From a virus, in IMG/VR virus record IMGVR_UViG_3300044620_000614, positions 9,553 to 73,552 of that record: a stretch of 64,000 nucleotides of DNA. One strand, written 5' to 3'. The position numbers were made by a program, and so were the translations under genes. Each line of letters begins with the position of its first letter. The first letter of the stretch is position 1. The notes under the pieces were generated by a model. The model was not told where the DNA came from. It saw nothing but the letters and a program-made list of their open reading frames with translations, and ran no database searches. This document shows positions 1,846 to 28,211 of this stretch, one piece after another.

Positions 1846-1848
1846 AAA

Positions 1849-2663: not shown

Positions 2664-2865
2664 CTTTATGCTCCTGATGAAACACAATAAAATGTTCCGG
2701 TACATCTTCTGGATTGTTCTCTGCTCTTATCTTTGCTCGGTTATATTCAACATCAGTTAAAAGTAATGATGTTACTTCTCCGTTGGCATCAACATGTGCA
2801 ACAAAATAATACTCTTCGTTTGCAGTTGGCTTCTTGTTTTTGTTTTTAATTTTTCCCTTGGCCAT
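2644..2865 (-). CDS. hypothetical protein
   Basis: tightly packed ORF. Confidence 0.6.
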   Translation of the reverse strand: MAKGKIKNKNKKPTANEEYYFVAHVDANGEVTSLLLTDVEYNRAKIRAENNPEDVPEHFIVFHQEHKDGKEES

Positions 2866-3053
2866 TAACCGCTCTCCTCGTCGAATCTACGACGAATATC
2901 CTGTTTGTGATAAAATCCCATCAACTCATCACGAACATCATTTAGTAAATCGACAATACTATCAGTAGTATATTCGTGCATTAAAGCACGAGGCGTAGAC
3001 AATTCTAGTAGCGCCTTGTTGATTCGTTCGATTGTGTAATACTTTGGATTCAT
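2865..3053 (-). CDS. hypothetical protein
   Basis: ORF from MNPKYY, immediately after tRNA-Leu. Confidence 0.5.
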   Translation of the reverse strand: MNPKYYTIERINKALLELSTPRALMHEYTTDSIVDLLNDVRDELMGFYHKQDIRRRFDEESG

Positions 3054-3056
3054 AAG

Positions 3057-3130
3057 TAGCACGGGTGGGACTCGAACCCACACTACACAGATTTTAAGTC
3101 TATTGACTCTGCCGATTGGTCTACCGTGCC
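3057..3130 (-). tRNA. tRNA-Leu(TAA), short variable loop
   Basis: ATAGA-CTTAAAA-TCTGT with a 5-nt variable region. Confidence 0.9.
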
Positions 3131-3134
3131 GTAG

Positions 3135-3217
3135 TACCCGCAGTAGGACTTGAACCTACACGCTTCTTAGGGCAGCGGATTTTGAATCCGCTGTGTCTGC
3201 CATTCCACCATGCGGGC
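3135..3217 (-). tRNA. tRNA-Leu(CAA)
   Basis: GCGGA-TTCAAAA-TCCGC, long variable arm. Confidence 0.95.
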
Positions 3218-3226
3218 GTGAACTGT

Positions 3227-3255
3227 ATTATATCATGCCTCTGTCTTCAATGCAA
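3227..3255 (-). promoter_or_regulatory. sigma70-like promoter for the tRNA-Leu operon
   Basis: TTGCAT-17 nt-TATAAT. Confidence 0.65.
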
Positions 3256-3257
3256 GT

Positions 3258-3600
3258 GGTTGTTGAGGATTTCTCCCCAACAACCGTGATCCGTTCAGTC
3301 GCGGGTGGATCAGACCCCACTGCTTCAAGCAGCCATTGCCATTGGTGCGGCAATCAATTTTTGCAACTGTTTATTTACGACACTTGTTACCCGTGTCGGG
3401 TATCTCCTTCTTCATTACTCTGCGTCAATCGAAGCCAGTTCAGCCCCTTAAATACCTGAAGCCCGGGCTTCAGGAATTGCCCCCTGCAAAGAGGACTTTA
3501 CTCGCCATCTCTAATAGACTTGCAGAATCTATTTCGGTTAGGCTAATGGAGCCGAGGGGAATCGAACCCCTGTGTTGTTCGCATTTCAATCCAATATCAA
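3258..3600 (-). ncRNA. ssrA: circularly permuted (two-piece) tmRNA
   Basis: acceptor piece ...GGGGTTCGATTCCCCTCGGCTCCA (ends at 3547) precedes the coding piece GGGGCTGAACTGGCTTCGA (starts at 3447); G3-U70 pair, pk1, tag AAPMAMAA* at 3351-3325. Confidence 0.88.
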
Positions 3601-3616
3601 CAATACCAAAGATTAT

Positions 3617-3889
3617 TTAGTCCATTTCCTTTTGATCGCTTATAAAGTCGTCATATAGACCAAGTTCTTCATCTAATTGTGCCAGTCTATCAAGTGCGTC
3701 GCGGCGAGGAGTATTTAGAATATGCACTGCTTCTTTTACAATAGAAGCCAATCCATGCACATCGCCCTTTTTTAGCGTTTCGCTGTAGTATCCATCATAG
3801 TCTACGAGGATAGCCCATGCGCGGAACATAGTTTCTCTAAGTTCCTTATTTTCTTTTTCAAGTTGCTTAATCTTTTCTTCGTTACTCAT
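3617..3889 (-). CDS. hypothetical coiled-coil protein
   Basis: ORF from MSNEEK. Confidence 0.55.
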   Translation of the reverse strand: MSNEEKIKQLEKENKELRETMFRAWAILVDYDGYYSETLKKGDVHGLASIVKEAVHILNTPRRDALDRLAQLDEELGLYDDFISDQKEMD

Positions 3890-4121
3890 CCTTACCCTTT
3901 CCCCAACCATTTTGAAACTTTTGCATCGCTTCGCGTTTAATTTGAGAAATTTCTTTTTCTAAATTTAAAACTCGTTCACGTAACTTATCGTTTTCAATTT
4001 CCAACATTTGATTACGCAAACGCAATGCTTGATTATTCATCAAGACATCTTCAAACTCCCAAGAACGCTCAGGAGTTCTATCAGTCTGCTCCTTCAGAAA
4101 ATCCTTGTGATCCATACTCAT
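3882..4121 (-). CDS. hypothetical coiled-coil protein
   Basis: ORF with AAGGA RBS. Confidence 0.55.
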   Translation of the reverse strand: MSMDHKDFLKEQTDRTPERSWEFEDVLMNNQALRLRNQMLEIENDKLRERVLNLEKEISQIKREAMQKFQNGWGKGKDE

Positions 4122-4249
4122 GTTTCGTTCCTTTTGGTTCTCTAAGTAATCGAATTTCATACATGGCATCTTTGCAAACATCTCTAACTTCAGGTTGCGC
4201 CCACTGCCATTTGTTTGCTAATTCTTGCAATCTATCTAGTATGTCTGTA

Positions 4250-4522
4250 TTATTCATATCTAACCTTAATCTTTGCGTAACCTTTTTCCGAATCTAGTAT
4301 TTCAATAGAACGGACTTTAGCATCCATATCTATCTCAATCATTGGATCACCGACCATTAAAAATGGACCACCTTCAAAGTCAAACATTTCGGTGGTATTA
4401 TCTTTGTCAACCGTAGAACAACGATAGTACAGAGTTTCCCCTTCAATAATTAGGGAACCATCTGCATCTTCTGTAATTAAACGATTAACTCCGTATCTTG
4501 ATTTTATCAGTTTTACCATCAT
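4250..4522 (-). CDS. hypothetical protein
   Basis: ORF with DFEGGPF motif. Confidence 0.6.
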   Translation of the reverse strand: MMVKLIKSRYGVNRLITEDADGSLIIEGETLYYRCSTVDKDNTTEMFDFEGGPFLMVGDPMIEIDMDAKVRSIEILDSEKGYAKIKVRYE

Positions 4523-4526
4523 ATAG

Positions 4527-4599
4527 TGCGGTAGGAGAGAATCGAACTCTCATGTCGGGTTTGGAAAACCCGCGTAATGAGCCATTATACGACGACCGC
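4527..4599 (-). tRNA. tRNA-Gly(TCC)
   Basis: CGGGT-TTTCCAA-ACCCG. Confidence 0.9.
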
Positions 4600-4798
4600 T
4601 TGTTTTCGCGCTCTTTTGCCATAAAGAGCCCTTGACTGATGCCACTATGGTTTCCATCTTGATAACCATTGTGATAAGCAGTTCTATAGTACCAAATTTG
4701 AAAGGCAATGATAGCGCACAGACCTGATATCGAAAGTAGTATTGTTTCCATGCAAGTATGTTTGCCTTACCATATTTTGAACCGAATCTTAACTTTAG

Positions 4799-4872
4799 TA
4801 CACCTACGGGGACTCGAACCCCGAGTCACCGCCTTGAAAGGGCGGGGATTTAGCCGGTTAATCTATAGGTGC
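4799..4872 (-). tRNA. tRNA-Glu(TTC)
   Basis: CCGCC-CTTTCAA-GGCGG. Confidence 0.95.
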
Positions 4873-4926
4873 AGAAAGCCCCAATCACAAATCATAATAT
4901 ACGCCGGGGCCCAGCGAATGTATATA

Positions 4927-5472
4927 TCAACCTATTTGCACTCCGTTGCAAACCTTAGAGCAGTAATCATACATTGCGATACCGCTGGCTGTTCCAACAT
5001 TTAGACTTCTCACTGATCCATACTGCCTAATATACACCAACTCATCACACAAGTCAAGCAGTTTCTTCGGGATTCCAATCTGCTCCTGTCCAAAAATCAT
5101 GAGGACAGGCTTACTGCATGGCCAACTAAACTCATCAATTGGCTTAGCATCTCCAACATTGTCAACACCAACAACATACATGCCACGCATTGCCTTTAGA
5201 AGTTCTGCTTCTTGATCTTCCTTAAAATGGCGGAAGTGGGTATAGTTGTGTGTACCGACAGTTCCACGACGATCATATTGCTTATTTCCATAAATCCAAA
5301 CGGAGTTGGCTAGAAATGCATTAGCATTACGAATCACCGTAGCAATGTTGAAATCATTTCCAAGATTACTGCAAAGAACAGTAAAGTTGTTGCGCTTGGT
5401 GTCAAGATCTGCAACAATATCATCGTGCTTCCAATAATGATAGTGGTCGATGATGTTACGAGTTTCGCTCAC
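4927..5472 (-). CDS. TrmH/SpoU-family RNA 2'-O-methyltransferase
   Basis: NIATVIRNANAF, IFGQEQIGI, SLNVGTASGIAMY; GTG start after AAGGAGG. Confidence 0.9.
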   Translation of the reverse strand: MSETRNIIDHYHYWKHDDIVADLDTKRNNFTVLCSNLGNDFNIATVIRNANAFLANSVWIYGNKQYDRRGTVGTHNYTHFRHFKEDQEAELLKAMRGMYVVGVDNVGDAKPIDEFSWPCSKPVLMIFGQEQIGIPKKLLDLCDELVYIRQYGSVRSLNVGTASGIAMYDYCSKVCNGVQIG

Positions 5473-5702
5473 TTGTCGTCCTCCTTTCGTGGCACAGGGA
5501 CAATCGTCACCAGATCGTCGGGAGGTGCAGGAAGGTCGCGCACACCGCGTAGCACCTCTTGACCGAGCAACAGCAAGCGACATTCCCGCCTCGCCTCGTC
5601 GCGCTCTTTGATTAGCCGCTCAATCACTTCTGCGATCTCATCGGCACAGTTGATGCTGTGAGACAGTCTCTTGATCCTTGCGATGGCATCGTGTTCGTTC
5701 AC
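5469..5702 (-). CDS. hypothetical protein (GC-rich)
   Basis: GTG start after AAGGAGG; promoter TTGACA-17 nt-TATACT at 5725-5753. Confidence 0.55.
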   Translation of the reverse strand: MNEHDAIARIKRLSHSINCADEIAEVIERLIKERDEARRECRLLLLGQEVLRGVRDLPAPPDDLVTIVPVPRKEDDK

Positions 5703-5871
5703 TTGGTTTCCTCCTTGTCGGTAGAGTATAGCAGGTAAATAGTGTGGTGTCAAGCAAACATCTTGCGGATCTGCTGGTAGCCGTAGTATGCCATCACGGA
5801 CACTCCCATGACGATGGCTGCGGCTTTGATGTACTTCCAAAAGTTATTCATGGCTTTTTCCTTTCTGTGTT

Positions 5872-6243
5872 TCAGTTGATGACTTCTGCTGTGACGGGAA
5901 CGGGCTTTGACCGCTTCCCATACTTCTTATAGATGGTGTAGGCAAGGTAGGCAAACGCCGCCAAGACACCCATCTTCAACAGGGACGAGAACCATCCGCT
6001 GCTGGGCTTCTCATTGGGCTTGCTCTCCGCTTCCTCGGTGTGTGCGTGGTTCTTCTTGCAAGCACATCCCGAAAAGTAGAGACTGCTGTAGTGGCGCAAC
6101 TCGGATTCAAGATGACGAATCTTGTTGTCCTTGCTCAAGAGTTTCCACTTGGTGTCATACAAGTGAATCACGTAGAGCAAGAACACCACGACGAATCCGA
6201 CTGTGGAAAGTCCAAGCAAAATGTTGAGATTGTGTGGGGTCAC
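5872..6243 (-). CDS. membrane protein, 2 TM
   Basis: two hydrophobic helices; GTG start after AAGGAGG. Confidence 0.55.
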   Translation of the reverse strand: MTPHNLNILLGLSTVGFVVVFLLYVIHLYDTKWKLLSKDNKIRHLESELRHYSSLYFSGCACKKNHAHTEEAESKPNEKPSSGWFSSLLKMGVLAAFAYLAYTIYKKYGKRSKPVPVTAEVIN

Positions 6244-6677
6244 TTGCAGTCCTCCTTGTAAGGAACATAACGATCCATTCGGTGTTCTTCGCAAACTGTT
6301 TTAAGCCAAAAACCACCTTGAGTTACACAAACTTGACCGGGATTACCACAAACTTCACAAGTCTTGCCACTCTTTCTTTCCGCTTCAATAATCCAATCAA
6401 AAATTTGATTATCGGCACCACTAACATAGAAACGAAGAGTGCCAAACTTTTCTTTGACCTGTTCTATGCGGAATGGGAATTCAACATCCACGAACTTATC
6501 ACGATTGGTATCAAGATAGTTTTCTATCTTTTGTAGAAGTTCATGTAGAAGTTCAGTCCAACCAATACCACACTCTATACCAAAAAGAATGCAACAACCT
6601 TCATTCTTAAAGCACAGGGGATACTTTGATTTCCAATCTTCGAAATTAAATTCTTTGCTTGTCATTTTGAAAAACAT
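6240..6677 (-). CDS. conserved phage protein (QxKEKFGxLRFY-CxxCG family)
   Basis: CGIGW...QVKEKFGTLRFY...CEVCG. Confidence 0.7.
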   Translation of the reverse strand: MFFKMTSKEFNFEDWKSKYPLCFKNEGCCILFGIECGIGWTELLHELLQKIENYLDTNRDKFVDVEFPFRIEQVKEKFGTLRFYVSGADNQIFDWIIEAERKSGKTCEVCGNPGQVCVTQGGFWLKTVCEEHRMDRYVPYKEDCK

Positions 6678-6846
6678 CCGGGTAGCGTTGTTCTATGGAA
6701 TAATCCATAGGGAAGTGCTTACAAACTCTGTACGCTCGCTGCCGAACTGCCTTGGGTACGCGAGGAGTCTTTGACGGATCAAGTAGATCGTAAAGAAATC
6801 TACGAACTGCTTGTAAACTTTGAACTTCTTCGTTCGGTAAAGTCAT
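6646..6846 (-). CDS. BPSL0761-like small protein
   Basis: MTLPNE...TPRVPKAVRQRA...KHFP. Confidence 0.65.
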   Translation of the reverse strand: MTLPNEEVQSLQAVRRFLYDLLDPSKTPRVPKAVRQRAYRVCKHFPMDYSIEQRYPDVFQNDKQRI

Positions 6847-6848
6847 AA

Positions 6849-6919
6849 TGCGCGATTCAGGGATTGAACCTGATTGAACCCGTTATAAGCGGGTCTGCGA
6901 AGCCATCCGCCCATCGCGC
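6849..6919 (-). tRNA. tRNA-Ile(TAT)
   Basis: ACCCG-CTTATAA-CGGGT; acceptor stem GCGCGAT/ATCGCGC. Confidence 0.85.
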
Positions 6920-6968
6920 TTGTAAATCCTACCACTTATATATATAAGTATATCAAGGAGTATCCATT

Positions 6969-7382
6969 ATGTCAAGCAATAAAACCAAAAAAGTATTCTG
7001 CACAAATTGTGGAACATGGTGTGGTTCTGGCAGAAAATACTGTAAAGACTGTCGATTAAAAAGGAAACAAGAATTAAAAGAGCAATCAATAAATGCCAAA
7101 AAATCTGATGCAATTTATACACATGGTCATATTTCAAATAAATATGCAAAAATAAGATACCACGCAAGACATGATTTTGAAAAATCAATAACTAAATGTC
7201 AAAAATGTGGTTATGATAAACATGTTGAAATATGTCATATCAAATCCATAAAAGAGTTTCCCGATAGTGCAACCATAGCAGAAATAAACAACAAATCAAA
7301 TATTATTGGTCTTTGTCCAAATTGTCATTGGGAATTTGATCATGGACTATTAAATATTACTACTGCCATAATTGATAACTGA
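6969..7382 (+). CDS. HNH endonuclease (probable homing endonuclease)
   Basis: CQKCG...EICHIK...NIIGLCPNCHWEFD; AT-rich and opposite in orientation to its neighbours. Confidence 0.85.
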   Translation: MSSNKTKKVFCTNCGTWCGSGRKYCKDCRLKRKQELKEQSINAKKSDAIYTHGHISNKYAKIRYHARHDFEKSITKCQKCGYDKHVEICHIKSIKEFPDSATIAEINNKSNIIGLCPNCHWEFDHGLLNITTAIIDN

Positions 7383-7607
7383 TTTTCTATTGTTCACATG
7401 ACCTGAAGGAGTCTTGATGAAGTAGTTGCTCTTTTGGCGATCTTCGTCGTGACCAAGACGATAGTTGATCTGTTCAAGACCAAGTTCGCGCATTCGCTTT
7501 TCGGAAATGCCATTATCAAAACAAAAGCGAATGATTTCCTTTGCTACTTCTAGAGCCTGTGCTTCGTCACCATTAATTGGAATGTCGATGTGTAATCTGT
7601 AGGTCAT
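7350..7607 (-). CDS. hypothetical protein
   Basis: ORF, coupled to the upstream gene. Confidence 0.6.
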   Translation of the reverse strand: MTYRLHIDIPINGDEAQALEVAKEIIRFCFDNGISEKRMRELGLEQINYRLGHDEDRQKSNYFIKTPSGHVNNRKSVINYGSSNI

Positions 7608-7963
7608 TCTTTATATTCTCGCTTGTCGTGCCAGTAACCGTAATCGTTCTCTGCTCCGTGCCGTGCCTTTAGATCAATGTATTGGAACACTGCCAATTCT
7701 TTGATGAAGTCATCTATCATTTTGATTGGTTCTTCGCTGATTGGCCATTCTTTGGGTGCTTCTGCTTGCCAATCACATGGACGGCACTTGTCGGGATTCT
7801 TTTTGCATACTTCCATTTCTGCAACGATGAGATCGCCCATTTTAACCATATTCAACAAAGTTTCAAGTGCCTTTGCGCTTTGATAATAGAGATCCTTTTT
7901 GGGTAAATCTTCTTCCTTGCGGGCGAGATTGCGGAGTTCGTAACACATTTCCTGAATACGCAT
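7604..7963 (-). CDS. hypothetical protein
   Basis: ORF with AAGGAG RBS. Confidence 0.65.
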   Translation of the reverse strand: MRIQEMCYELRNLARKEEDLPKKDLYYQSAKALETLLNMVKMGDLIVAEMEVCKKNPDKCRPCDWQAEAPKEWPISEEPIKMIDDFIKELAVFQYIDLKARHGAENDYGYWHDKREYKE

Positions 7964-7997
7964 AAAGGTATCTCCTTATTAGAATGTCCACAACTAT

Positions 7998-8375
7998 TTA
8001 GTATGCCAACTGCTCAAAACCATCATTTGTAGTAAAACGAATGCTGTGAAAAACCTTAACACACCAAGGCATGCAAAGTTCACAAGGACGAGCCATACGC
8101 ATGTCGCCAAATTGATTAAACCTAATATTGATTAGGTGCAACTTCTTTCCAAGAAGCCGCTTTTCGATCTTCTGAAATGCGTCCAGTTCGGAATGCATTT
8201 CTTCGTACATATAGCCAATTTGCTTCGCCTTGGGGTGAGTCTTGAAACGATTCATACCAACAGAAACAATCTTGTGCTTATGCACAATAATTGAGACATG
8301 CTTCTTTTGCCTGGGAATATCCAGGCAAATAGGATAAGCAACATCAAGCAAAGAATCGAGAGTTGTATTAGTCAT
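7998..8375 (-). CDS. cytidine/adenosine deaminase-fold protein
   Basis: HSE...RPCELC Zn-dependent deaminase motifs. Confidence 0.8.
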   Translation of the reverse strand: MTNTTLDSLLDVAYPICLDIPRQKKHVSIIVHKHKIVSVGMNRFKTHPKAKQIGYMYEEMHSELDAFQKIEKRLLGKKLHLINIRFNQFGDMRMARPCELCMPWCVKVFHSIRFTTNDGFEQLAY

Positions 8376-8828
8376 TTAAATCTTTCGCTTACGCGAGATC
8401 GCAAACAAGGCCGCAACACCAAGCATAACGGACACGCTCGGTGCTGGTACTGGCGGACGAACAGGGCAATCGGGACACGGAATACTTTCATTTCCGGCAG
8501 TAATCATTGCGTCACTTTCGACATAATCGTGTGCAATTGGCAAAAACATATCCTGATCTACACCCTGCACAGTATACACCAAATTACCCTCACGATACAA
8601 CTTATGAATCCAAAAACCATCAAATGAACCCATAAAGAACGGAGTAGCCGTATTGGTATAATTACTAACCGTTGGCATTTCAATTGCTTCTTTAGTTTCA
8701 GTAGTCATGCTCAAAGAGCCATCAAACTTAAGTGGTAGTGTGTACGAAACACCCATGTAAGTTGAACCCTGATAGTTTGAAGAAGTGAAACGCTGACCTT
8801 CGCCGTAAATTGTAGATGTTGTAATCAT
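8376..8828 (-). CDS. PEP-CTERM-like sorting-domain protein
   Basis: C-terminal VPAPS + TM helix + RKRK. Confidence 0.7.
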   Translation of the reverse strand: MITTSTIYGEGQRFTSSNYQGSTYMGVSYTLPLKFDGSLSMTTETKEAIEMPTVSNYTNTATPFFMGSFDGFWIHKLYREGNLVYTVQGVDQDMFLPIAHDYVESDAMITAGNESIPCPDCPVRPPVPAPSVSVMLGVAALFAISRKRKI

Positions 8829-8847
8829 AATATAAACCCTTTCAAAG

Positions 8848-8921
8848 CGTTCCCGAGTGGATTCGAACCACTGACCATTCGCTTAGAAGGCGAATGCTCT
8901 ATCCAACTGAGCTACGGGAAC
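8848..8921 (-). tRNA. tRNA-Arg(TCT)
   Basis: TTCGC-CTTCTAA-GCGAA. Confidence 0.95.
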
Positions 8922-8969
8922 AAAGAATAATGCGGGCACTTTCATACCCGCATTATATCAGAAGTTGAA

Positions 8970-9284
8970 TCAACCTTCAACTAATTTTAGTTCAGGAGCA
9001 ACAACTTCTTGCTGCACCGGAACAACCAAGCCATTGCCAAATGCACTGTTGTAGTGATTTGCAAGATCCATCTTAGCATCAACATGCCAAGCAATTGCGT
9101 TCCAGCGGACCAAAATACCATTCTCAATCTCGCCATAAGGAATCCACGGAGCCATTCCGAGTTCTCCCTTACCTGCCGGAACAAGAATGGCAGCCTTCTT
9201 AAGAAGAAGACCGTTTTCCTGTTGCTCTACCTTTGCGATTAGTTGTTCGCCCGTCGTCAATCCTACTAGTTGAATCATTGTCAT
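8970..9284 (-). CDS. small beta-rich (Sm-like) T4-like phage protein
   Basis: LxTGEQLIA...MAPWIPY...Y.SAFG..LVVP pattern. Confidence 0.6.
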   Translation of the reverse strand: MTMIQLVGLTTGEQLIAKVEQQENGLLLKKAAILVPAGKGELGMAPWIPYGEIENGILVRWNAIAWHVDAKMDLANHYNSAFGNGLVVPVQQEVVAPELKLVEG

Positions 9285-9384
9285 TTCCTTTCTTTCCAAA
9301 GATTCTGTCATAGTTTTCTGAATACTTATCCCAGTCTACTCGGCGATAAGCATCACCTTTACCAGCGCCGTGTTTACCTTCCAT
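9199..9384 (-). CDS. small conserved phage protein
   Basis: GKGDAYR.VD..KY.ENYDRIF; AAGGAG RBS. Confidence 0.55.
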   Translation of the reverse strand: MEGKHGAGKGDAYRRVDWDKYSENYDRIFGKKGNDNDSTSRIDDGRTTNRKGRATGKRSSS

Positions 9385-9404
9385 AACATCTCCTTATTCA
9401 GAAA

Positions 9405-9476
9405 AGCCACTTACTGGACTCGAACCCGCAACCTGTGCTTTACAAAAGCACTGCTCTACCATTGAGCTAAAGTGGC
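9405..9476 (-). tRNA. tRNA-Thr(TGT)
   Basis: GTGCT-TTTGTAA-AGCAC. Confidence 0.93.
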
Positions 9477-9478
9477 AA

Positions 9479-9549
9479 CTGCCCCGCTTGGATTCGAACC
9501 AAGAAGAGGAGGTTCAAAGCCTCCCATGTTACCGTTACATCACAGGGCA
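9479..9549 (-). tRNA. tRNA-Gln(TTG)
   Basis: GGAGG-CTTTGAA-CCTCC. Confidence 0.93.
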
Positions 9550-9612
9550 TTAAAGAAAGAGCGGAGTTATTTATGCTCCGCTCCTTCAACCCTCAACCCG
9601 AGGATTTACCGA

Positions 9613-9867
9613 TTAGCGGCAACCGCCAACGGTGTAGTTAGAAGGACCAACGAGGGCGACGCGCTTCATGAAGTAGCGAGTGCTGCCATCACGGTTAGTG
9701 TGCGAAACGATACGCCAGTTGCCGTAACGCTCAACAGTCTCCTTGATGTTGCTGATGGTGGCGCGGAAATTCTTGACACCAAACATCTTGCTAGCCTGAG
9801 CAGCGGTCAATCCACGACCTGTATGGAGATAATTGAGAACGCGATCCTTCTTAGTAATAGTTGTCAT
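9613..9867 (-). CDS. winged-helix DNA-binding protein
   Basis: RVLNYL.TGRGLT..QA..MFGV.N.RATIS.I. Confidence 0.7.
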   Translation of the reverse strand: MTTITKKDRVLNYLHTGRGLTAAQASKMFGVKNFRATISNIKETVERYGNWRIVSHTNRDGSTRYFMKRVALVGPSNYTVGGCR

Positions 9868-9940
9868 AACGAAACCTTTCAAACCGGCATTCACTTAAAC
9901 ACAAATAAACTCTGCCGTTAAGTTTATTTGCTTTTGGAAG

Positions 9941-10013
9941 TGCCTCCAGCAGGGGTCGAACCTGCGACCTATCGGTTAAAAGCCGAATGCTCTGCCAACT
10001 GAGCTATAGAGGC
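9941..10013 (-). tRNA. tRNA-Lys(TTT)
   Basis: TCGG-CTTTTAA-CCGA. Confidence 0.95.
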
Positions 10014-10350: not shown

Positions 10351-11412
10351 TCAAGCAATTTCCTGTCCATTAAATACGGAATTGATTTGGCGGTTTACCC
10401 GAACGAATGTCGTACACTTTGGCAGATCCTTCAGACGCTTGGCGCCAACATAAGTGCAAGCCGAACGAACACCACCAAGAATTTCCTGAACTGTATTGTC
10501 GATTGGACCGGTTTGCTTAACCTTGATGGTCTTACCCTCTGACGCTCGGTAAGTGGCTACACCGCCAGAAAACTTATTCATTGCGGTGTCTGATGACATT
10601 CCATAAAACACTCTGTTGCCAGATTCATCGTGTTGTGCTGCTTCATCGGAACCCGCAAACATACCACCAAGCATGACAAAATCACCACCAGCACCAAATG
10701 CCTTTGCAACATCGCCTGGACAAGTACAACCACCATCTGCCATAATGTGACCACCAAGACCGTGCGCCGCATCAGCACATTCCATGATTGCGGACAGTTG
10801 CGGATATCCAACGCCAGCAACCTTACGAGTGGTGCAAACTGAGCCAGGACCAATTCCTACCTTTACGATATTTGCGCCAGCAAGAATTAATGCTTCTGTC
10901 ATTTCACGGGTTACTACATTACCGGCAATCAAAATCTTGCCAGGAAAAATCTTACGAATAGTCGAAACATACTCTACAAACTTTTGCGTGTAACCGTTTG
11001 CAACATCAATACAAATAAATTTTACAGCAGAGCAATAATCTAGAATATTAGTTGCTTTGCGAATTTCTTCATAGGAATTTGTTCCCATTCCCATACTGTA
11101 AACGAGACAATCAAGATCAGGATTGCTAATCAGTTGATTATCGTAATTTTTCATCCACTCTTCTTCAGTATAGAACTTGTGAATGCAAGTTAACATTCTG
11201 TGTTGAGATAATTTTTCTGCAACAGAAAAAGTACCAATACCACTCATATTTGCCGCTGCAATAGGAATTCCATCCCAAGCAACATGCATTCCAGAACTAT
11301 CAAAATCAAATCTGCGTGAAAGTGAAACTTCTTTACGGCTGTTTAGTTCACTTCGCTTTGGACGAATTAGTACATCAGCAAAATCCAACTTCACATCATC
11401 TTCAACTTTCAT
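10351..11412 (-). CDS. guaC: GMP reductase
   Basis: [40 protein letters not shown]. Confidence 0.95.
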
Positions 11413-16502: not shown

Positions 16503-18806
16503 TCAGGAGAGGTTCTTGGCGATGATGTCCGCGACTCGTCCCATCAGCACACGGCTGGTGCGCTTGGACTTCTCGGTCTTGGCGAAGGTGTTCTTCAGCT
16601 GCGTACCGGTCAGTCCCGTCAGGTCACCCTGCTTCACCGTCTTGGTGGGGACGATGATGAAGTTGGAGTCGAACCCGTCACCCGGCAGGGCGGCGAAGTT
16701 GTTCTCCTTCATTGACTCCTTGGCGATCTCCGCGACCTTGGGATTCGTACCGATCAGCATATGATCGAAGTACCGGGCGCTGCCGATGAGGAAGAACCCG
16801 ACGACATTGGCACCGGTCTTGTGCTTCAGGTACATACGCAGAATGGCCGTGGTGGAGCACTGCATGGACACATTCGTACCCCACCGGGTCTTTTCCTTGC
16901 GAACCGGGATCGTCCAGGTCTTGCTACCGTCGACCAGCACCGGGATGGCGTTGGCGTCACCCTTGGCGTTGTAGATGTCGAACGGGTGCGAGCCAGACTC
17001 ACCATCGGTCAGGAAGCACACATTGACAACCTGCAGGCGATTGTCCCGCTTGAACTTCTCGGTCACGGGAACCATCGCGTACACAGCTTCATCGAGCGGC
17101 GTACCACCGAGGCTGAATCCCGCAGGAGTCTTGGCGGTGTACGCATTCGAGTCCTCCGCGATCCGCAGCATCATACCGGCGGCCACATCGAACTCGGTCT
17201 TGCTCATCCGGCTCGACAGAGTGTTGAGCAGGTGGAAGTGGCTGAAGCGGAGGTAATCACCAGTGGTCTGATACCCGTGCTCGTCCTTCTCATACTCCTT
17301 GCACACGGAGGGACGAGTGAAGGACTTGCTCGGCATCTTGCCGGTGAGGTTCATCTCCGCGTACTCCGGCGAGTACGAATCGGAGAACAGATAGACCTCG
17401 TAGGGGATGTTGACCGACTTGCAGAACATGACGAGGTTCAGCAACTGGTAGATCGTCTCGCGGAGGTTCTGGCTCATCGAACCCGACCAGTCCATGCAGA
17501 AGATCATGCCGTGGTTCTTACCCTTGGCGATCTCCTCGGTGGCGAGGAAGATGTCATCAGCGAACTTGTAATCGTTGATACGATCCATGTCGATGATACC
17601 GCAACGGGCCGAACGCGTACGGCGCGACTCGTCGGCAGCCATCTTCATCTCAAACTGCTTGACGAGCATCTTGATGGCGTCCGCGCTGTTCGTGCGGAAA
17701 TCCTTGAGCAGCTTCTCGTTGTTGAGGCCGTTACGCTGCGCGACAGCGGCGAACTGGGGCACGATGGTCTTGAAGTCAACGAGGATCGAATCCATGTTGA
17801 GCGTCGGCATCTTCCACCGACGAACCTGCGTGGCCGAAGTGTCCACCATGTTCTTGCGGTTACGCTCCTCGGCTTCCGCAGTCACCGAACGAGTCGGCTT
17901 GCCGTTCTGATTACCACCGGTCGACGCGGTGTTGCCGGGCTTGGACTCGGACTTGGACGGCTGCGAGCCGTTACCCTGGTCCTTGTCCTGCTTCTGCTCA
18001 CCCTGGCCCTGACCGTCCTGCGACTGATCGTCGCTCTGGTCACCCGCGCAATCGGCGGGATCGTTACCCTGACCCTGACCAGTCGGCTGGGTGCCGGTGT
18101 TGCCGGAACCCGAGGGCTGACCCTGCGGACCGTTGTTCGGCTTGTTCTGCTGCTGCTTCGCAGCCTTACGCGCACCATCGTACTCGTAGATCTCGGCAGC
18201 GAGAGCGACCACATCGTCCCAGGTCTTCATCGCCTCAAGGCGAGGAAGGAACGCAGCTTCGTCCGCAGTCATCGGCACGGCAGTGACGCCGTAGATGCCA
18301 GACTTGAAGTGGACATTGAGACGGTCGAGCAGCGGGAGATCCTGCATCGCTTCGGTGTTGAGCGACTTGACGCCAAAGAAGTCCTTGTCGAACAGATACT
18401 TGCCCGCTTCGGCGTAGCAACGCTTCAGACCGGGGAAGCGATCCTTCATCTGGCGGTCGATACGAATGTCCTCGCACACATTGAGGTAGTCGTGAATCAC
18501 GCGCACATCGACGCCGGTATCCGCATCGACAGCGGCGTGCGACTGGTCGATGACGGTGAGATCAGCCGGAGTGAAGAGAGCGTGACCGACCTCGTGAGCG
18601 CAGAGCATATCGTACAGGTCACCGCTCATCTCCTGCCAGACGGGGAGAGTGAGAACGCGAGTGCCGGTATCGAACGATGCAGTCTGCGCGGTCGCGTCAT
18701 GCATGACCGTGAGATTCTCGGTAGCCAGCAGACGCGCGAATGCGTCCTTGGCAGCCGTGTTGATGGCGAACGGGTTAGAAACGGTAGTGGTAGGAGTCTG
18801 TCCCAT
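16503..18806 (-). CDS. VWA-domain protein with N-terminal HExxH motif (CobT-like MoxR partner)
   Basis: HEVGHAL, EDIRI, DWSGSM MIDAS, GGTPL, FLTDGE; Q/G-rich linker. Confidence 0.85.
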   Translation of the reverse strand: MGQTPTTTVSNPFAINTAAKDAFARLLATENLTVMHDATAQTASFDTGTRVLTLPVWQEMSGDLYDMLCAHEVGHALFTPADLTVIDQSHAAVDADTGVDVRVIHDYLNVCEDIRIDRQMKDRFPGLKRCYAEAGKYLFDKDFFGVKSLNTEAMQDLPLLDRLNVHFKSGIYGVTAVPMTADEAAFLPRLEAMKTWDDVVALAAEIYEYDGARKAAKQQQNKPNNGPQGQPSGSGNTGTQPTGQGQGNDPADCAGDQSDDQSQDGQGQGEQKQDKDQGNGSQPSKSESKPGNTASTGGNQNGKPTRSVTAEAEERNRKNMVDTSATQVRRWKMPTLNMDSILVDFKTIVPQFAAVAQRNGLNNEKLLKDFRTNSADAIKMLVKQFEMKMAADESRRTRSARCGIIDMDRINDYKFADDIFLATEEIAKGKNHGMIFCMDWSGSMSQNLRETIYQLLNLVMFCKSVNIPYEVYLFSDSYSPEYAEMNLTGKMPSKSFTRPSVCKEYEKDEHGYQTTGDYLRFSHFHLLNTLSSRMSKTEFDVAAGMMLRIAEDSNAYTAKTPAGFSLGGTPLDEAVYAMVPVTEKFKRDNRLQVVNVCFLTDGESGSHPFDIYNAKGDANAIPVLVDGSKTWTIPVRKEKTRWGTNVSMQCSTTAILRMYLKHKTGANVVGFFLIGSARYFDHMLIGTNPKVAEIAKESMKENNFAALPGDGFDSNFIIVPTKTVKQGDLTGLTGTQLKNTFAKTEKSKRTSRVLMGRVADIIAKNLS

Positions 18807-19095: not shown

Positions 19096-20484
19096 ATGGC
19101 TAACGCCACCAACAACAAGATCGCTACCTTCGTCAACCTCTGCGTGACCGAGGGATACAAGTCGCCGCTTTCCCGTTCGCAGATCAAGGCGCTGCGCGCG
19201 AAGTACGGTTGCCCGATGCCCGCGTGGCTGATGAAGGACGAGGACCGTCGCGTCGGTCACGGCAAGTACGCTTGCGCGGAGCTCGACGCTGCGTGGTCGA
19301 CTCGCAACGGCGTCGCTGCTGCTGCGTCCGTTCCGGCTCCCGTGTCCGCTCCGGTCGCTGTCGCGGCTCCGGCTGCTCCTGCGATGCAGGCTCGCATCGC
19401 CCGTGCGGAGTCCACGCTTGACGGTAACTTCATCCCGTCGAAGCTGATGACCTATGTGCCGTACGGCAACTACAAGGACATCGAAGCCATCGTGAAGTCC
19501 AAGCGTTGGTATCCGACGATGGTGACCGGTCTGTCGGGTAACGGCAAGACGACCATGATTGAGCAGGTGTGCGCGAAGCTCGGTCGTGAATGCATCCGCG
19601 TCAACCTCACCAGCCAGACCGATGCGGACGACCTGCTCGGTGGGTTCCGCCTCGTCAACGGTGACACCGTGTGGCAGGACGGTCCGGTCGTGACCGCGAT
19701 GAAGCGCGGTGCGATCCTCCTGCTCGACGAGATGGATACCGCGTCGCACAAGATCATGTGCCTCATGCGTGTCCTCGAAGGTAAGGGTGCGTTCCTGCCG
19801 AAGATCAACACCCAGGTCGAGCCTGCTACCGGGTTCAATGTGTTCGCTACGATGAACACCAAGGGCCAGGGTGGCGAGGGTTCCGAGCAGTTCTCCTCGC
19901 GTAGCATTCTCGATGAGGCGCTGCTTGAGCGTTTCAGCGGCACCTACGAGCAGGACTACCCCACCAAGGCGGTGGAGAAGAAGATCGTCCTCGGCAACAT
20001 GGAGGCGCTGTCGTGCGTGGACGAGCCGTTCGCTGACTGCCTGGTGAAGTGGGCCGAGATGATCCGCAAGACCTACATGGAAGGTGGTGCGGACGCGATC
20101 ATCACGACCCGTCGTCTGTGCATGATCGTGGACAACTTCAGCATCTTTGCTGACCGCACCAAGGCTGTGACCGCTGCGTGTGCGCGCTTCAGCAACTCGA
20201 CCAAGGAGGCGTTCGTGAACCTCTACACCAAGGTCGACGCGGAAGTGTCCACGACCGCTGATCCGGCTCGCGCTGCTGCGATGGAGGCGGAAGCCGCTGC
20301 CGCCGCTGTCGCCAAGGCTACGCGGTTCGACCTCAAGGGTGCTGCGTTTCAGGATCGCGCCACGGTGAAGAACCTCGGTGCGGCGTGGGACGCGACTGCC
20401 AAGGTTTGGTATGTCACGGGTGACCAGTACCGCGCGAACCCGAGCGCGTTCGACCCCTTCAAGCCGACTCCGGTGTCGGCCTAA
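19096..20484 (+). CDS. MoxR/CobS-like AAA+ ATPase with C-terminal DUF5710-like domain
   Basis: GLSGNGKT Walker A, LLLDE Walker B, ATMNTKG, EALLERF; C-terminal KNLGAAWDATAKVWYV. Confidence 0.9.
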   Translation: MANATNNKIATFVNLCVTEGYKSPLSRSQIKALRAKYGCPMPAWLMKDEDRRVGHGKYACAELDAAWSTRNGVAAAASVPAPVSAPVAVAAPAAPAMQARIARAESTLDGNFIPSKLMTYVPYGNYKDIEAIVKSKRWYPTMVTGLSGNGKTTMIEQVCAKLGRECIRVNLTSQTDADDLLGGFRLVNGDTVWQDGPVVTAMKRGAILLLDEMDTASHKIMCLMRVLEGKGAFLPKINTQVEPATGFNVFATMNTKGQGGEGSEQFSSRSILDEALLERFSGTYEQDYPTKAVEKKIVLGNMEALSCVDEPFADCLVKWAEMIRKTYMEGGADAIITTRRLCMIVDNFSIFADRTKAVTAACARFSNSTKEAFVNLYTKVDAEVSTTADPARAAAMEAEAAAAAVAKATRFDLKGAAFQDRATVKNLGAAWDATAKVWYVTGDQYRANPSAFDPFKPTPVSA

Positions 20485-24703: not shown

Positions 24704-25116
24704 CGCCACTAGTGACCGGAACAAAATCTGCAATGCACGCCGACATCATCACCGACATGGAGTATTTGGCTGCCGAGATGGTGGCAGGTAAGATTTCAAT
24801 CCTGCGCGGAACTCACATCGAGGTGCAACTGACCAATCTGCTTCTCAAGGCAGCCAGAACGGTTCGAGATCAGCAGTATCAGATCATCGAGCTTGAGGAA
24901 GCCAATACGGCACTCGCCCGCACCGCGGTCCCCGATACGGTCGAGGGAATAAGCGATCACTACCAGCAGCTGATCGTGGAGAACGAGAAACTGAAGAAGC
25001 GTAATGCCAACCAAGCGGCATTGATCGACGCCATCAATCAGGGACGAGCAAAGAAAGTCGCCGGTGGTGGTTGGACACACGACAACATCCCACACACAGA
25101 GGTAACCAGCCCATGA
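24700..25116 (+). CDS. coiled-coil hypothetical protein
   Basis: ATGA overlap with the upstream gene. Confidence 0.6.
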   Translation: MTPLVTGTKSAMHADIITDMEYLAAEMVAGKISILRGTHIEVQLTNLLLKAARTVRDQQYQIIELEEANTALARTAVPDTVEGISDHYQQLIVENEKLKKRNANQAALIDAINQGRAKKVAGGGWTHDNIPHTEVTSP

Positions 25117-25517
25117 GCAAGCCACAGCCAGACATCTTTCAACCCATCACCGAAGCCACCGCGCTTGAGCATGAACTCTCCATCATGCTCAACGCCAAAC
25201 AGGTTGTCGATCACTTCATGCCAGTCCCCGGCTCCTACCCACCAGGCCCTCAAGTGGCCAAAGCCGTCCGCGTCATTCAGGCGCTGATGATCTTGGTACA
25301 CGCCCAGCAGAAGGTCGTCATCGAAGCAGAGAATGCCCTTCAGCCCACTCTAGACCAACTGGGTGATACCAAGATGGCTCTCAAGGAAGCCGAACAGCGT
25401 GTCGTTGCTGTAGAGAAGATGAGGGATGACGCCGAACAACTCTACAACGATCTGCTCGTACAGATGGCCAATTTGGAGCAGGGTATTCACGACGAGTACA
25501 ACTCCCTACAGAGCTAA
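25113..25517 (+). CDS. coiled-coil hypothetical protein
   Basis: ATGA overlap; MSKPQPD start. Confidence 0.6.
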   Translation: MSKPQPDIFQPITEATALEHELSIMLNAKQVVDHFMPVPGSYPPGPQVAKAVRVIQALMILVHAQQKVVIEAENALQPTLDQLGDTKMALKEAEQRVVAVEKMRDDAEQLYNDLLVQMANLEQGIHDEYNSLQS

Positions 25518-25927
25518 CCAAGGTCTTCATGTGATTGCCCCCGGCATACCGTAACTGGATGTCGGGGGTTTTGCATTTGGTCCTGCCAAACGGCGACAGC
25601 GCCGGCGCCAGAGTCTACAGCACCCTTTGGCGGAATAAAAATGATCGTCGAATAAAAATATATTCGGTTTAATTAGTTCTGGCGCTCAAAAACCCCTAGA
25701 TTTACAGGGGCCACAAGGCAAAGTTTCCCAGGTTTTGGATTTAATACTTCTGGCGAGCACGAGAAGACGCCCGCCAAATGGAAGTTTTACGACCCGGGCT
25801 GTCAAAACTGCCGTTCGATTGGAAGTTTAGCCATTTGGCGCACGCATTGGCTCCAGAACCAGCTCGAGCAGGTGGAGCCAAAACAATTATAACTTGATAC
25901 TCGGGGTGGCTCCTATATACTAGGAAC

Positions 25928-26347
25928 ATGAAGAGTACAGACCGACGAGTTCTGGCTTTCATTGATTACCTCCGCGAGTCTTGCCGCGAGGGGAAGACCC
26001 GTATTATCCTAAAAAATCTGAAGAGTATACCAGACTGGGACGGGGAATTCGTTGACGGCCTCGATGGCTACTTCAACCCACCCAAGAAAAAGACCATTGG
26101 CACGATAGTAATCGCCGCCAATCGTCCATTACCGACTGTTTTACACACTTTGGCGCATGAATATGTCCATTATTTGCAATGGAAAGCCAAAAATAAGTAC
26201 TACAACACGGTTTCTTACCACCAATTAGAGAAAAAAACTGAAGCCAGAGCGTTAAAACTGCTGGAACAGTTCAATTTACCCATAGACTTGAGCGCCAGAA
26301 AGCGTTCGTCTACCCGTTACATCAAAAGATTAGCCAAAATGCGCTGA
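25928..26347 (+). CDS. zincin (ImmA/IrrE-like) metallopeptidase
   Basis: TLAHEYVHYLQ...E...A. Confidence 0.65.
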   Translation: MKSTDRRVLAFIDYLRESCREGKTRIILKNLKSIPDWDGEFVDGLDGYFNPPKKKTIGTIVIAANRPLPTVLHTLAHEYVHYLQWKAKNKYYNTVSYHQLEKKTEARALKLLEQFNLPIDLSARKRSSTRYIKRLAKMR

Positions 26348-26370
26348 GTTTGGCGGATTCCCTGCGAATT

Positions 26371-26454
26371 CATCGACAGCGACACTCTAGACACTCAGGG
26401 TTTTCTCTGAAATACCCGTCGCTTCGCGGAGTGTCTAGAGTGTCGCTGTCGATG
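26371..26454. repeat. 26-bp perfect inverted repeat
   Basis: CATCGACAGCGACACTCTAGACACTC (26371-26396) and its reverse complement (26429-26454). Confidence 0.95.
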
Positions 26455-26465
26455 CGCGCGTTTGG

Positions 26466-26738
26466 CGACTGGAAGTTCTCGATGAGTCGCTCTTGGAACG
26501 TTGATCTCGATTGGAAGTTCTGGCGAGCACTGTGCGAATGGAAGTTTTCACACAGTGCCGGCGATTGGAAGTTCGATTGGAAGTTTTAGAGTACCTCAGC
26601 TCGACATGCGCGATTGGAAGTTTTGGCTTCATAAAACTTTTTGGAGTTCGATTGGAAGTTCCCAGAGGCCAAATAGAATTCGCCCCATTCGAATGGAAGT
26701 TCTAGCACATTACTGCCACCCCAGAACGATTGGAAGTT
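26466..26738 (+). repeat. array of nine CGA(T/A/C)TGGAAGTT direct repeats
   Basis: copies at 26466, 26508, 26535, 26562, 26574, 26611, 26649, 26690 and 26727; another at 25816 and a variant near 25776. Confidence 0.9.
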
Positions 26739-26768
26739 CTGGGATACATACTGGTAAAGGAGTACATT

Positions 26769-27053
26769 ATGCCGGCATATGATTACCAATGCAGTAAGTG
26801 TGAGAGAGTCTGGGAAGAGATCCGTAAGATCGCAGAACACGACGAACCCGAGAGGCTTCCGTGTCCCCATTGCGGCAAGAAGAAGTGCGTACAACAGGTG
26901 GTCTTAGAGGCCCCTGCGATGGCAATGGACACTAATCACCGTATAGATGGGAAGGCTAAGGGTGGCTTTAAAGATGTGATGAGTAAGATTGCTGATTCTG
27001 CGGGCGTCAAAGGTGGCAAGTTAGAGAAGGCGATTCGTCGCAGATACCTCTGA
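26769..27053 (+). CDS. FmdB-family zinc-ribbon protein
   Basis: MPAYDYQCSKC...CPHCG. Confidence 0.8.
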   Translation: MPAYDYQCSKCERVWEEIRKIAEHDEPERLPCPHCGKKKCVQQVVLEAPAMAMDTNHRIDGKAKGGFKDVMSKIADSAGVKGGKLEKAIRRRYL

Positions 27054-27104
27054 TCCCCCCAACAAACACCGAATCTGGCCCCCAGACCCCCCTTTATTTC
27101 ATAT

Positions 27105-27112
27105 TATAAATA
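27105..27112 (+). promoter_or_regulatory. T4-type late promoter
   Basis: TATAAATA; also at 48-55(-), 1083-1090(-), 12955-12962(-), 13029-13036(-), 14084(+) and 33184(+). Confidence 0.8.
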
Positions 27113-27153
27113 CCCATAGATTTCAAAAATGTTAACAAATTAAGGATCTACCC

Positions 27154-27630
27154 ATGTCAGACATAGTAAAGAAATACCAACACTACTTCGCAGAATCTAC
27201 TCGTTTACAAGAACTGGTTAATGAACAGGCTGCTTATATTGCAGAACTAGAGGAGGCAGTATTGGCTCTCTCTGAGGATTACTTTGACTCTCCTGCAAGT
27301 TCTGCTGCAAGTAGAGCAAATGTCAAAAAGGCAACGAAAGTATTGGGTGCAGAATCACCAGCCACAAAAGCACTAGCACAAACTCATGCTGCTATTGTAA
27401 AAAGTCCTAGAGCATACGGTATTTCCGATGATGAGTTGGGTCGCCGAGAAGGTGACGAGTTTGACGTTCTTGGTAGACCATTTACTGGAAAACCAACATT
27501 GACCCCAATTACACCAAAGGATATGGACGGATATGATGCTGAATTTGGTGGTAAAGAAAAAGGAGTAAATTTGGGATCTATCGGTAAGGCTGCAAAGGCA
27601 ATCAAAGCGACTAAAGGTAAAAAGGGATAA
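27154..27630 (+). CDS. putative internal head protein
   Basis: late promoter; YFAE-S, LVNE-Q and LSE-D motifs. Confidence 0.65.
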   Translation: MSDIVKKYQHYFAESTRLQELVNEQAAYIAELEEAVLALSEDYFDSPASSAASRANVKKATKVLGAESPATKALAQTHAAIVKSPRAYGISDDELGRREGDEFDVLGRPFTGKPTLTPITPKDMDGYDAEFGGKEKGVNLGSIGKAAKAIKATKGKKG

Positions 27631-27632
27631 AC

Positions 27633-28211
27633 ATGGACAACATAAACAACGATGTAATGCAACAATTGGCTCAAGCATATATGAATATGCTTGCTGAAAG
27701 CCACACCCACGAACAACTCATGAAACTCTCTGTTGAGAAGTTGAAAGAACTCAAGGCCGAATATGTAAAAAAGATCGGTGAGGCTGAAGGTGAAGAGAAA
27801 GAGAAGCACCAAAAGGAATTGGCTAACATTGAGGACATTTTGGCTTCCCGTAAGGATGACAAGGATGATAAGGAAGAGGTCGAAGAGGCTTATCGTCTTA
27901 CTCCCGAAAGAGAAAAGGTATTGGATAAGGCTGATGCAGACGCAACAAAGGCATTAGACAAATCTATTGGCTCTGCAAATAAAGATGAAGCCATAAAGGC
28001 ACTTGGCAGGTCAACAAGAGCAGAAATCCTCCGTCAATTGGCAAAGCCAAAGAAAACAGGTGCATGGGCAGGATCATCCGACGACGATCTAAAATCAACA
28101 TTGAACTATGCGCGGAAATCACAACTTGGTGAATCTGCTAAAGAGATTGTACAAAATATCAGTGAATGGATGAAGAATATGAAAGGTAAGAAGAATGGCA
28201 AGAGTAAGTAA
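27633..28211 (+). CDS. putative internal head protein
   Basis: MLAE-S, VEE-A, LGE-S. Confidence 0.65.
   Translation: MDNINNDVMQQLAQAYMNMLAESHTHEQLMKLSVEKLKELKAEYVKKIGEAEGEEKEKHQKELANIEDILASRKDDKDDKEEVEEAYRLTPEREKVLDKADADATKALDKSIGSANKDEAIKALGRSTRAEILRQLAKPKKTGAWAGSSDDDLKSTLNYARKSQLGESAKEIVQNISEWMKNMKGKKNGKSK

Follow-up and report, generated by a model that had tools for sequence, protein, structure and literature searches.

Introduction

This analysis concerns a non-coding module in a 64,000-nucleotide stretch of viral DNA (the window), which covers bases 9553–73552 of the 73.5-kb (73,552-base) IMG/VR record IMGVR_UViG_3300044620_000614, a record with an estimated completeness of 40%. By sequence, its source is an uncultured T4-like lake myovirus. 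The module consists of a perfect 26-bp inverted repeat followed by an array of nine co-oriented 12-mers, and lies between a gene for a small zincin-like protein, a putative protease, and a gene for an FmdB-type Zn-ribbon protein. Comparison with related phages shows that it is a lineage-specific, unique, cis-acting element whose two parts are both selected. It appears to belong to a known kind, the short-repeat binding array beside a structured element, with a putative binder.

The nearest named thing in this phage group is the iteron cluster of T4 oriE, which likewise is a set of 12-nt direct repeats at a single site. According to PMC3016281, oriE requires an early-type promoter, and its iterons still lack a defined role. 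Gene 5 of T4 contains these repeats (GTTGAAGGTAAT-like) at an even 24-nt spacing, whereas those of the module are non-coding, irregularly spaced and unrelated in sequence. They are not syntenic either, lying between different genes and not at the gene 5/repEA position. In T4 itself (7403–7570 of locus L011; 79402–79569 of the record), the iterons recur strictly every 24 nt within the last part of this gene and hence coincide with an 8-residue protein repeat, which may explain why the iteron role in replication stayed unclear.

In replicons of the P1 and F type, iteron arrays flank the initiator gene, with a small set 5' of the promoter and about nine downstream. The locus described here is similar in that two co-oriented sets of short repeats flank one small gene and the spacers evolve freely. 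Nevertheless, the flanked gene is zincin-like and not Rep, and the locus has no DnaA boxes, AT-rich element or phasing.

Protease-plus-regulator switches are known from ImmA/ImmR, IrrE(PprI)/DdrO and CapP/CapH. As in these systems, the genes for a small HEXXH protease and a small putative regulator are neighbours, and their control region contains repeated sites. The partner here is an FmdB-type Zn ribbon rather than a helix-turn-helix repressor, fold matches to PprI, IrrE and CapP are not significant (best E 0.1), and the nine to eleven sites far exceed those of the known operators.

The CsrB/RsmZ sponges also carry many irregularly spaced GGA-containing words in one non-coding stretch. The conserved word of the present array is, however, 12–14 nt long and not A(N)GGA; ANGGA occurs in 3 of 11 copies.

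The repeat array

The module and its upstream copies were located as follows.

26371..26454: perfect 26-bp inverted repeat with a 32-nt centre (arms 26371–26396 and 26429–26454, 100% complementary)
26466..26738, + strand: array of nine co-oriented CGAWTGGAAGTT(YT) sites, with one abutting pair at 26562–26585
25775..25827, + strand: two upstream 12-mer copies, CAAATGGAAGTT at 25775 and CGATTGGAAGTT at 25816

Copies of CGATTGGAAGTT with at most one mismatch start at 26466, 26508, 26535, 26562, 26574, 26611, 26649, 26690, 26727 and 25816, all on the + strand, and an eleventh copy with two mismatches starts at 25775 (+). The start-to-start spacings within the array are 42, 27, 27, 12, 37, 38, 41 and 37. 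The initial annotation had described a perfect inverted repeat, nine co-oriented 12-mers at these spacings and two more copies upstream, and all of these were recovered.

Clustering of the word at this site exceeds chance. With up to two mismatches allowed, 15 matches were found in the window, compared with 6.98 ± 2.81 in shuffled sequences, and none of 100 shuffles reached 15. Eleven of the matches fall within 964 bases, while the other four, each with two mismatches, are scattered (14504, 17563, 44925 and 56797). Exact copies in the 73,552-base record number seven in the forward and none in the reverse orientation, all at this locus; a reversed control word has no copy in the same record. 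The AT content of the array is 45–57%, compared with about 60% for the genome.

Several simpler identities of the 12-mer were considered and rejected. A protein repeat is ruled out, since the copies lie in different reading frames and their spacings are not conserved. As a –35 element the word fares no better, the array containing a single sigma-70-like match and no shared downstream –10. Its complementarity to the phage's own tRNA-Gly(UCC) is limited to 6–7 nt of the anticodon loop, which is at chance level. A literature search for the 12-mer returned primer coincidences only and no described motif. The word is thus not described in the searchable literature, and the array is clade-specific.

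A separate 13-nt word, TTCTGGCGAGCAC, occurs twice, at 25748–25760 (5' of the zincin-like gene) and at 26518–26530, immediately behind copy two of the array. Of these, the latter is kept in the related loci L130, L009 and L085, while the L012 array instead repeats CCAGAGCTCT three times.

Conservation in related phages

Relatives were found by pattern scans and protein-anchored scans.

L008/L012 (G001): IMGVR_UViG_3300042937_000486, flanking proteins 61–63% identical to those of the window
L009 (G002): IMGVR_UViG_3300009184_000317
L085: metagenome contig
L096, L115 and L130: short loci
L134 (G003): contig beginning inside the array

The same order of zincin-like gene, hairpin, about nine copies and Zn-ribbon gene is present in L008/L012, L009, L085, L096 and L130, with further fragments of the module in L115 and L134, and the layout recurs in at least four other lineages. 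The metagenome pattern scan returned at least 121 loci. Most of the matches listed are tandem repeats in coding sequence that have no relation to the module (periods 21, 27 or 39 nt), and the only relatives among those listed are L085, L096, L115 and L130. In the more distant L138 and L143, a 33%-identical zincin-like gene lies 32 nt from the Zn-ribbon gene with no array between them. This arrangement indicates that the hairpin-plus-array module was inserted into a conserved gene pair. A further 25 more distant phage loci with related Zn-ribbon genes have no upstream array, although one has an unrelated 9-mer three times; in Kuttervirus, the Zn-ribbon gene is tightly packed beside gp33 and gp32.

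The repeat word itself hardly varies. The 38 copies of four distinct arrays yield the consensus CGAWTGGAAGTTYT, in which C1, A3, G6, G7, A8, A9 and G10 are invariant. All 38 copies, from four lineages, run in the same direction as the genes. Although spacings vary by lineage (46/40/13/35/59/45/60 in L012), the copy number of each array stays near nine, and none lacks an abutting pair (12–13 nt). Helical phasing was found in the spacings of neither the window nor L012. The upstream pair and the 29 nt between its copies are conserved in L085 and absent from L012.

Compared with the near-identical L130, the window has no difference at the 108 motif positions and 25 differences at the 178 spacer positions (14%). 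The inverted repeat is unchanged (0/84) and the flanking coding sequence differs at no more than 4 of 239 positions. By Fisher test, motif and spacer differ at p 4.5e-6 and spacer and coding sequence at p 7.8e-7. The comparison of L012 with L096, which did not cover the inverted repeat, gave 3/110 differences in the motif, 19/232 in the spacers, 1/117 in coding sequence and 9/121 in the leader after the array. These comparisons show that the 12-mer is under purifying selection while the spacers are free or fast-changing. A fixed word among divergent spacers, together with a hairpin stem kept by compensatory changes (below), shows selection on both parts of the module. The initial annotation had named absence from related phages among the findings that would refute it; as the element is present and selected in them, we regard it as functional.

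A functionless, fast-turnover repeat patch, a small selfish or slippage-made family in a permissive intergenic gap, is improbable on this evidence. The whole region of 26.4–28.9 kb is hypervariable among strains and the gap tolerates other repeats, such as those of L085 described below. Nevertheless, the 12-mer has no copy elsewhere in the record, the word is letter-perfect although flanking proteins are only about 61–63% identical and spacers diverge, and the hairpin architecture is preserved through compensatory change. Moreover, a search of 185,579 prokaryote species (one genome per species) for two motif copies 10–40 nt apart found just five unrelated loci and no host signal.

L085 carries additional repeats of its own. 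About 400 extra AT-rich bases lie between its array and the Zn-ribbon gene (3240–3700), with a 154-nt period and 2.1 copies; TTTAAACCGGAT occurs in them three times, along with short palindromes. The array of L085 is also divided into two groups, by 90 nt of inserted AT-rich sequence.

Searches for further relatives were negative. The locus had no nucleotide match among 50,697 phage records, where E values up to 10 gave merely chance-level 25-nt hits to inoviruses. A search of viral contigs with the zincin-like protein found no relative beyond the contig already known. With the 641-aa downstream protein, the contigs of close relatives were found to stop before the locus, and two rearranged distant ones lacked the gene pair.

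Spacers and a possible guide array

The contrast between repeats and spacers bears on another proposal of the initial annotation, that of a processed repeat–spacer guide array. In such an array, which would be neither CRISPR nor TIGR but of a kind not yet described, the 12–14-nt words would serve as handles, and 15–30-nt fast-diverging spacers would be cut from the operon transcript in units of about 37–42 nt. The units would guide or decoy a nuclease, a repressor or another, yet unseen effector. Invariant repeats among spacers that differ by 14% between almost identical strains are as expected for such units, spacings of 37–42 nt make up five of eight in the window, and a long helix suited to RNase III lies immediately upstream. 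Unit length is, however, irregular, ranging from 12 to 60 nt across lineages. The spacers are homologous copy by copy between lineages, with no sign of acquisition, and have no match in the remaining genome, four relatives or the phage collection. Overall, we consider a guide array highly unlikely, and no known type fits.

CRISPR arrays have repeats longer than 20 nt, regular spacers and cas genes. The repeat here is 12–14 nt in irregular units, and PADLOC returned only sub-threshold Cas-like rows, for one downstream gene. In ToxI-like type III toxin–antitoxin systems, identical tandem units of about 36 nt are followed by an endoribonuclease toxin gene; here just 12–14 nt per unit are conserved and the downstream gene encodes the Zn-ribbon protein. 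TIGR arrays are closer, in that they occur in phages and have short (8–12 nt) repeats, variable spacers and units near 36 nt. They consist of two alternating 8–12-nt repeats (edge and loop), 9-nt spacers and regular units of about 36 nt, with an adjacent Nop-domain protein (PMC12045711). The present array has one repeat type and irregular spacers of 0–48 nt. The Nop domain PF01798 gave no match at E ≤ 1 in the 73.5-kb record, which is about 40% of the genome.

The inverted repeat

A scan for arms of at least 18 nt within 200 nt found three pairs in the window. The other two are 18–20-nt imperfect palindromes, leaving the repeat at 26371–26454 as the sole long perfect one. Folds were compared for three sequence variants (window/L130, L085 and L012). 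All share an outer stem of 21–26 bp and a three-way tip made up of an 8–9-bp inner hairpin and a mini hairpin, with z-scores of –5.7 to –13 as RNA or single-stranded DNA. Five of 29 predicted pairs are altered on both sides. The inner hairpin is GGGT/ACCC in the window, GGAT/ATCC in L085 and an unrelated 9-bp stem in L012. The architecture is thus kept through compensatory change.

Each arm in the window contains two GACACTC heptamers, and all four have become GACCTT(C/T) in L012. Such a parallel change is not demanded by base pairing alone and suggests protein contacts. The initial annotation had called the repeat a cruciform. This label is doubtful: as the 32-nt centre is itself folded and co-varying, we consider a structure in RNA or transiently single-stranded DNA more plausible than cruciform extrusion from duplex DNA.

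The array downstream behaves differently. Folded alone as RNA, it has no significant structure (sense z –1.2 to –1.75 in four lineages), and Rfam gave no relevant match at E ≤ 1 within 25000–27500. The initial annotation had placed some copies in hairpin loops and suggested a CsrB-like sponge with GGA loops. Both hairpins enclosing single copies, GCACTGTG...CACAGTGC and CCCAGAAC...GTTCTGGG, do exist in the window. Nevertheless, only two of the nine array copies are presented in this way, and the GCACTGTG...CACAGTGC stem is disrupted in the close relatives L130, L009 and L085. A sponge of the CsrB kind is accordingly weakly placed.

Flanking genes and transcription

The module is embedded in a compact locus whose other features are given below.

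25537..25582, + strand: terminator-like hairpin with a U-run, closing the upstream GC-rich gene block and separating it from the module
25894..25921, + strand: sigma-70-like promoter match TTGATA-16-TATACT, 10 of 12 positions, a consensus match only
25928..26347, + strand: zincin-like gene, 139 aa, HEYVH motif
26769..27053, + strand: FmdB-type Zn-ribbon gene, 94 aa, with ribosome-binding site AAAGGAG
27105..27112, + strand: TATAAATA, a T4-type late-promoter word preceding the next gene (27154–27630)

The order along the + strand is terminator-like hairpin, two 12-mer copies, promoter match, zincin-like gene, inverted repeat, nine copies, Zn-ribbon gene and TATAAATA. The terminator-like hairpin was missed by the consensus terminator scan, its loop being longer than 8 nt; the fold of 25530–25595 has –30.1 kcal/mol (z –2.8). 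The upstream copies lie about 70–150 nt 5' of the promoter-like site. That site ends 6 nt 5' of the zincin-like ATG, and ATATATACTAGG 5' of the ATG recurs in L085 and L012, so that the mRNA of this gene may have little or no leader. The TATAAATA at 27105, which by analogy with T4 would be a late promoter, is the first + strand occurrence after the array and is also kept in L008 and L009. The two genes that follow it (27154–28211) are hypervariable, with 44–75% amino acid identity among relatives compared with 86–97% for neighbouring genes.

The zincin-like protein matches Pfam DUF3920 below the cutoff (E 8e-4) and has five homologues in a large protein search. Its AlphaFold model has a predicted local distance difference test score (pLDDT) of 88.3. 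A Foldseek search with this model found no match at E ≤ 0.001; the weak rows (best E 0.1) were to small zincin-like metalloproteases, PprI/IrrE and CapP. The Zn-ribbon protein matches Pfam Zn_ribbon_8 (4.8e-11), TIGR02605 (5.9e-12) and PHROG 385 ‘transcriptional regulator’ (1.2e-7).

Transcription was assessed from RNA-library contigs, which are strandless and may include DNA carry-over; all four sequencing runs compared with the window consisted of contigs, of flat depth. Two contigs of one RNA library are relevant: the first, over 26611–26794, takes in four copies together with the beginning of the Zn-ribbon gene, and the second lies over 25940–26323. The former is compatible with transcription of the distal array. 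No contig covers 25438–25839, a weak observation at this low depth, or 26324–26610, where the absence carries no weight.

An RNA-level element, although less likely than not, is a close rival of the reading preferred below. In this case, the zincin/Zn-ribbon operon transcript would contain the module between its two cistrons. RNase III-type processing would take place at the 26-bp helix with the three-way tip, or the helix would stabilise an RNA end, and the unstructured 12–14-nt words would be repeated sites for an RNA-binding protein or for pairing with a small RNA. The transcript would then serve as a sponge, or control translation of the Zn-ribbon gene through multiple sites. Several observations are as expected on this account: the position of the module within a gene pair that is just 32 nt apart in L138 and L143, the orientation of 38/38 copies with the genes in four lineages, the irregular spacing usual for RNA sponges, the maintenance of the outer stem and the off-centre inner hairpin by compensatory changes in three variants, and the two RNA-library contigs. 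In addition, an A-to-G change in the last-copy stem of L009 keeps a G–U pair in RNA and none in DNA, a single case. Nevertheless, two copies lie upstream, between the terminator-like hairpin and the promoter-like site, and the region around them has no contig in the shallow RNA data. The limits of strandless contigs apply here as well. Moreover, the single-copy hairpins are not conserved, the array lacks significant structure and an Rfam match, and the parallel change of the four arm heptamers is unneeded for an RNA helix.

Contig ends

Assemblies tend to break near the module. The contigs of an independent DNA run are interrupted between 26395 and 26448, both positions being at the hairpin arms, and this explains why some public contigs end there. 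Three IMG/VR contigs also end in or beside the site: G002 at the inverted repeat, G003 inside the array and G004 64 nt before the Zn-ribbon gene. Other contigs break anywhere within 26.4–28.9 kb, a region that is hypervariable among strains, while the window, G001 and L085 continue uninterrupted. Breaks at any point of this interval, together with its hypervariable genes, indicate that the contig ends reflect strain diversity and not a genome terminus.

A signal on moving DNA, that is, a T5 iss-like injection stop, a terminase recognition site or a site of concatemer processing, could be imagined from these ends and from the pairing of a large palindrome with short repeats at a unique site. 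The chance of this is very slim. The ends of G002, G003 and G004 lie at differing positions, other contigs break across the hypervariable genes, the breaks at 26395 and 26448 resemble an assembly or sequencing effect, and three sequences pass straight through. T4 relatives are known for headful packaging without a fixed site, which also weighs against such a signal. Like the module, the T5 iss is an untranslated region dense in repeats and palindromes that borders the first-expressed genes. It has eight DnaA boxes, its defining feature, in the terminal-repeat leader (10.1101/866236). Here, no DnaA box with up to one mismatch was found in 25000–27500, and no terminal repeat is known, the record being a linear fragment. 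The T5-like role put forward in the initial annotation is thus unsupported.

Candidate functions

The initial annotation listed four roles without choosing between them. We tentatively prefer, at somewhat short of an even chance, a DNA-level platform for one sequence-specific protein as a class; the RNA-level element is a close rival. Each asymmetric 12–14-nt word, CGAWTGGAAGTTYT, would be an independent high-affinity site in duplex DNA for a probably phage-encoded protein. The insertion of the module between the zincin-like protease gene and the FmdB-type Zn-ribbon gene, which abut in more distant phages, would place a row of bound protein just 5' of the operon promoter and between its two cistrons. 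As an operator, a roadblock or a looping platform, the row would control expression of the zincin/Zn-ribbon pair, or its timing, where the GC-rich block gives way to the late genes. The first candidate for the binder is the Zn-ribbon protein, which the protease may control. We infer protein binding, DNA over RNA as the target, the identity of the binder and the effect of binding alike.

Three observations favour DNA over RNA: the upstream copies, which between the terminator-like hairpin and the promoter-like site are probably outside the operon transcript; the parallel heptamer change; and a long asymmetric word resembling a protein site. The uniqueness and conservation of the array, its invariant word and variable layout, its insertion into a conserved gene pair and its lack of a significant RNA fold are likewise in line with a row of protein sites on DNA.

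Other results weigh on the opposite side. Pfam, PHROGs, NCBIfam and PADLOC scans of the neighbouring genes detected no recognised DNA-binding domain, and the ‘regulatory’ label of FmdB proteins is a database annotation, not an experiment. The 25 other phage loci with related Zn-ribbon genes do without an upstream array, the Kuttervirus gene is packed by gp33, and L012 does without the upstream copies. The spacing lacks helical phasing, unlike that of most cooperative operator, iteron or centromere arrays. The copies are co-directional with transcription and the module lies within what is an operon in distant relatives, which an RNA-level role fits equally well; the same holds for the RNA-library contig over 26611–26794 and for the single-strand-like, co-varying centre of the hairpin.

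Within the DNA class, an operator or roadblock for the zincin/Zn-ribbon pair, though doubtful taken alone, has a slight lead over a replication origin of the iteron type (or the control locus of one), itself rather unlikely. Any other DNA-level role would be a very small residue. The iteron origin proposed in the initial annotation keeps a basis in the direct repeats, nine plus two copies of one binding site confined to this locus. On the other hand, regular, helically phased spacing was found in neither the window nor L012, no AT-rich unwinding stretch or DnaA box is present (an AT-rich insert occurs only in L085), and the neighbouring genes, zincin-like and Zn-ribbon, include no Rep family or other replication gene.

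Genomic setting

The family-B DNA polymerase of the phage is 50% identical to its counterpart in Synechococcus phage S-RIM8. Other genes include a UvsX-like recombinase, a DnaB-like helicase, a primase, a ribonucleotide reductase and a thymidylate synthase, with the replication genes located at 50–57 kb of the window. Near-identical DNA is present in many lake-water metagenome runs.

The GC content is 0.54–0.61 across 16–26 kb, 0.38–0.45 beyond 26 kb and about 0.40 elsewhere. The module sits at the drop near 26 kb, just before the first late-type promoter word (27105), which bears out the boundary position given in the initial annotation. Two genes with assignments lie in the GC-rich block, along with small genes lacking one.

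16503–18806, minus strand: CobT-like gene (phrog_459, E 1.8e-164)
19096–20484: CobS-like AAA ATPase gene

A chimeric contig as the source of the GC jump was rejected, because the block is syntenic in G001 and partly in L085 and keeps its raised GC in both. In L085 (1–2420), the CobT-like gene is immediately upstream of the module and points toward it, while in the window and G001 it is 7 kb away in the opposite direction. This change of orientation indicates an inversion or deletion beside the module in L085.

Elsewhere in the window, 14 tRNA genes lie on the minus strand (1094–10013) amid small uncharacterised genes. Near them are genes for a DksA/TraR zinc-finger protein (65–277), a cREC_REC receiver-domain protein (1915–2295), a SpoU-type methylase (4927–5583) and an IMPDH/GMP-reductase-like protein (10351–11412). 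Three consecutive paralogues with a glycine-rich domain (Pfam Gly_rich_2) occupy 58175–61047, and for the protein at 61477–62709 the major tropism determinant (N-terminal domain) scored a weak match below threshold.

Conclusions

Cis-acting sites of large uncultured phages are almost unknown. The module described here is a single site that is clearly selected in several lineages of a common lake phage group. Should it be an origin, a T4-type phage would have origin iterons in non-coding DNA. If the word binds a flanking protein, it would provide the first defined nucleic-acid target for the FmdB-type Zn-ribbon family and a new phage timing switch.

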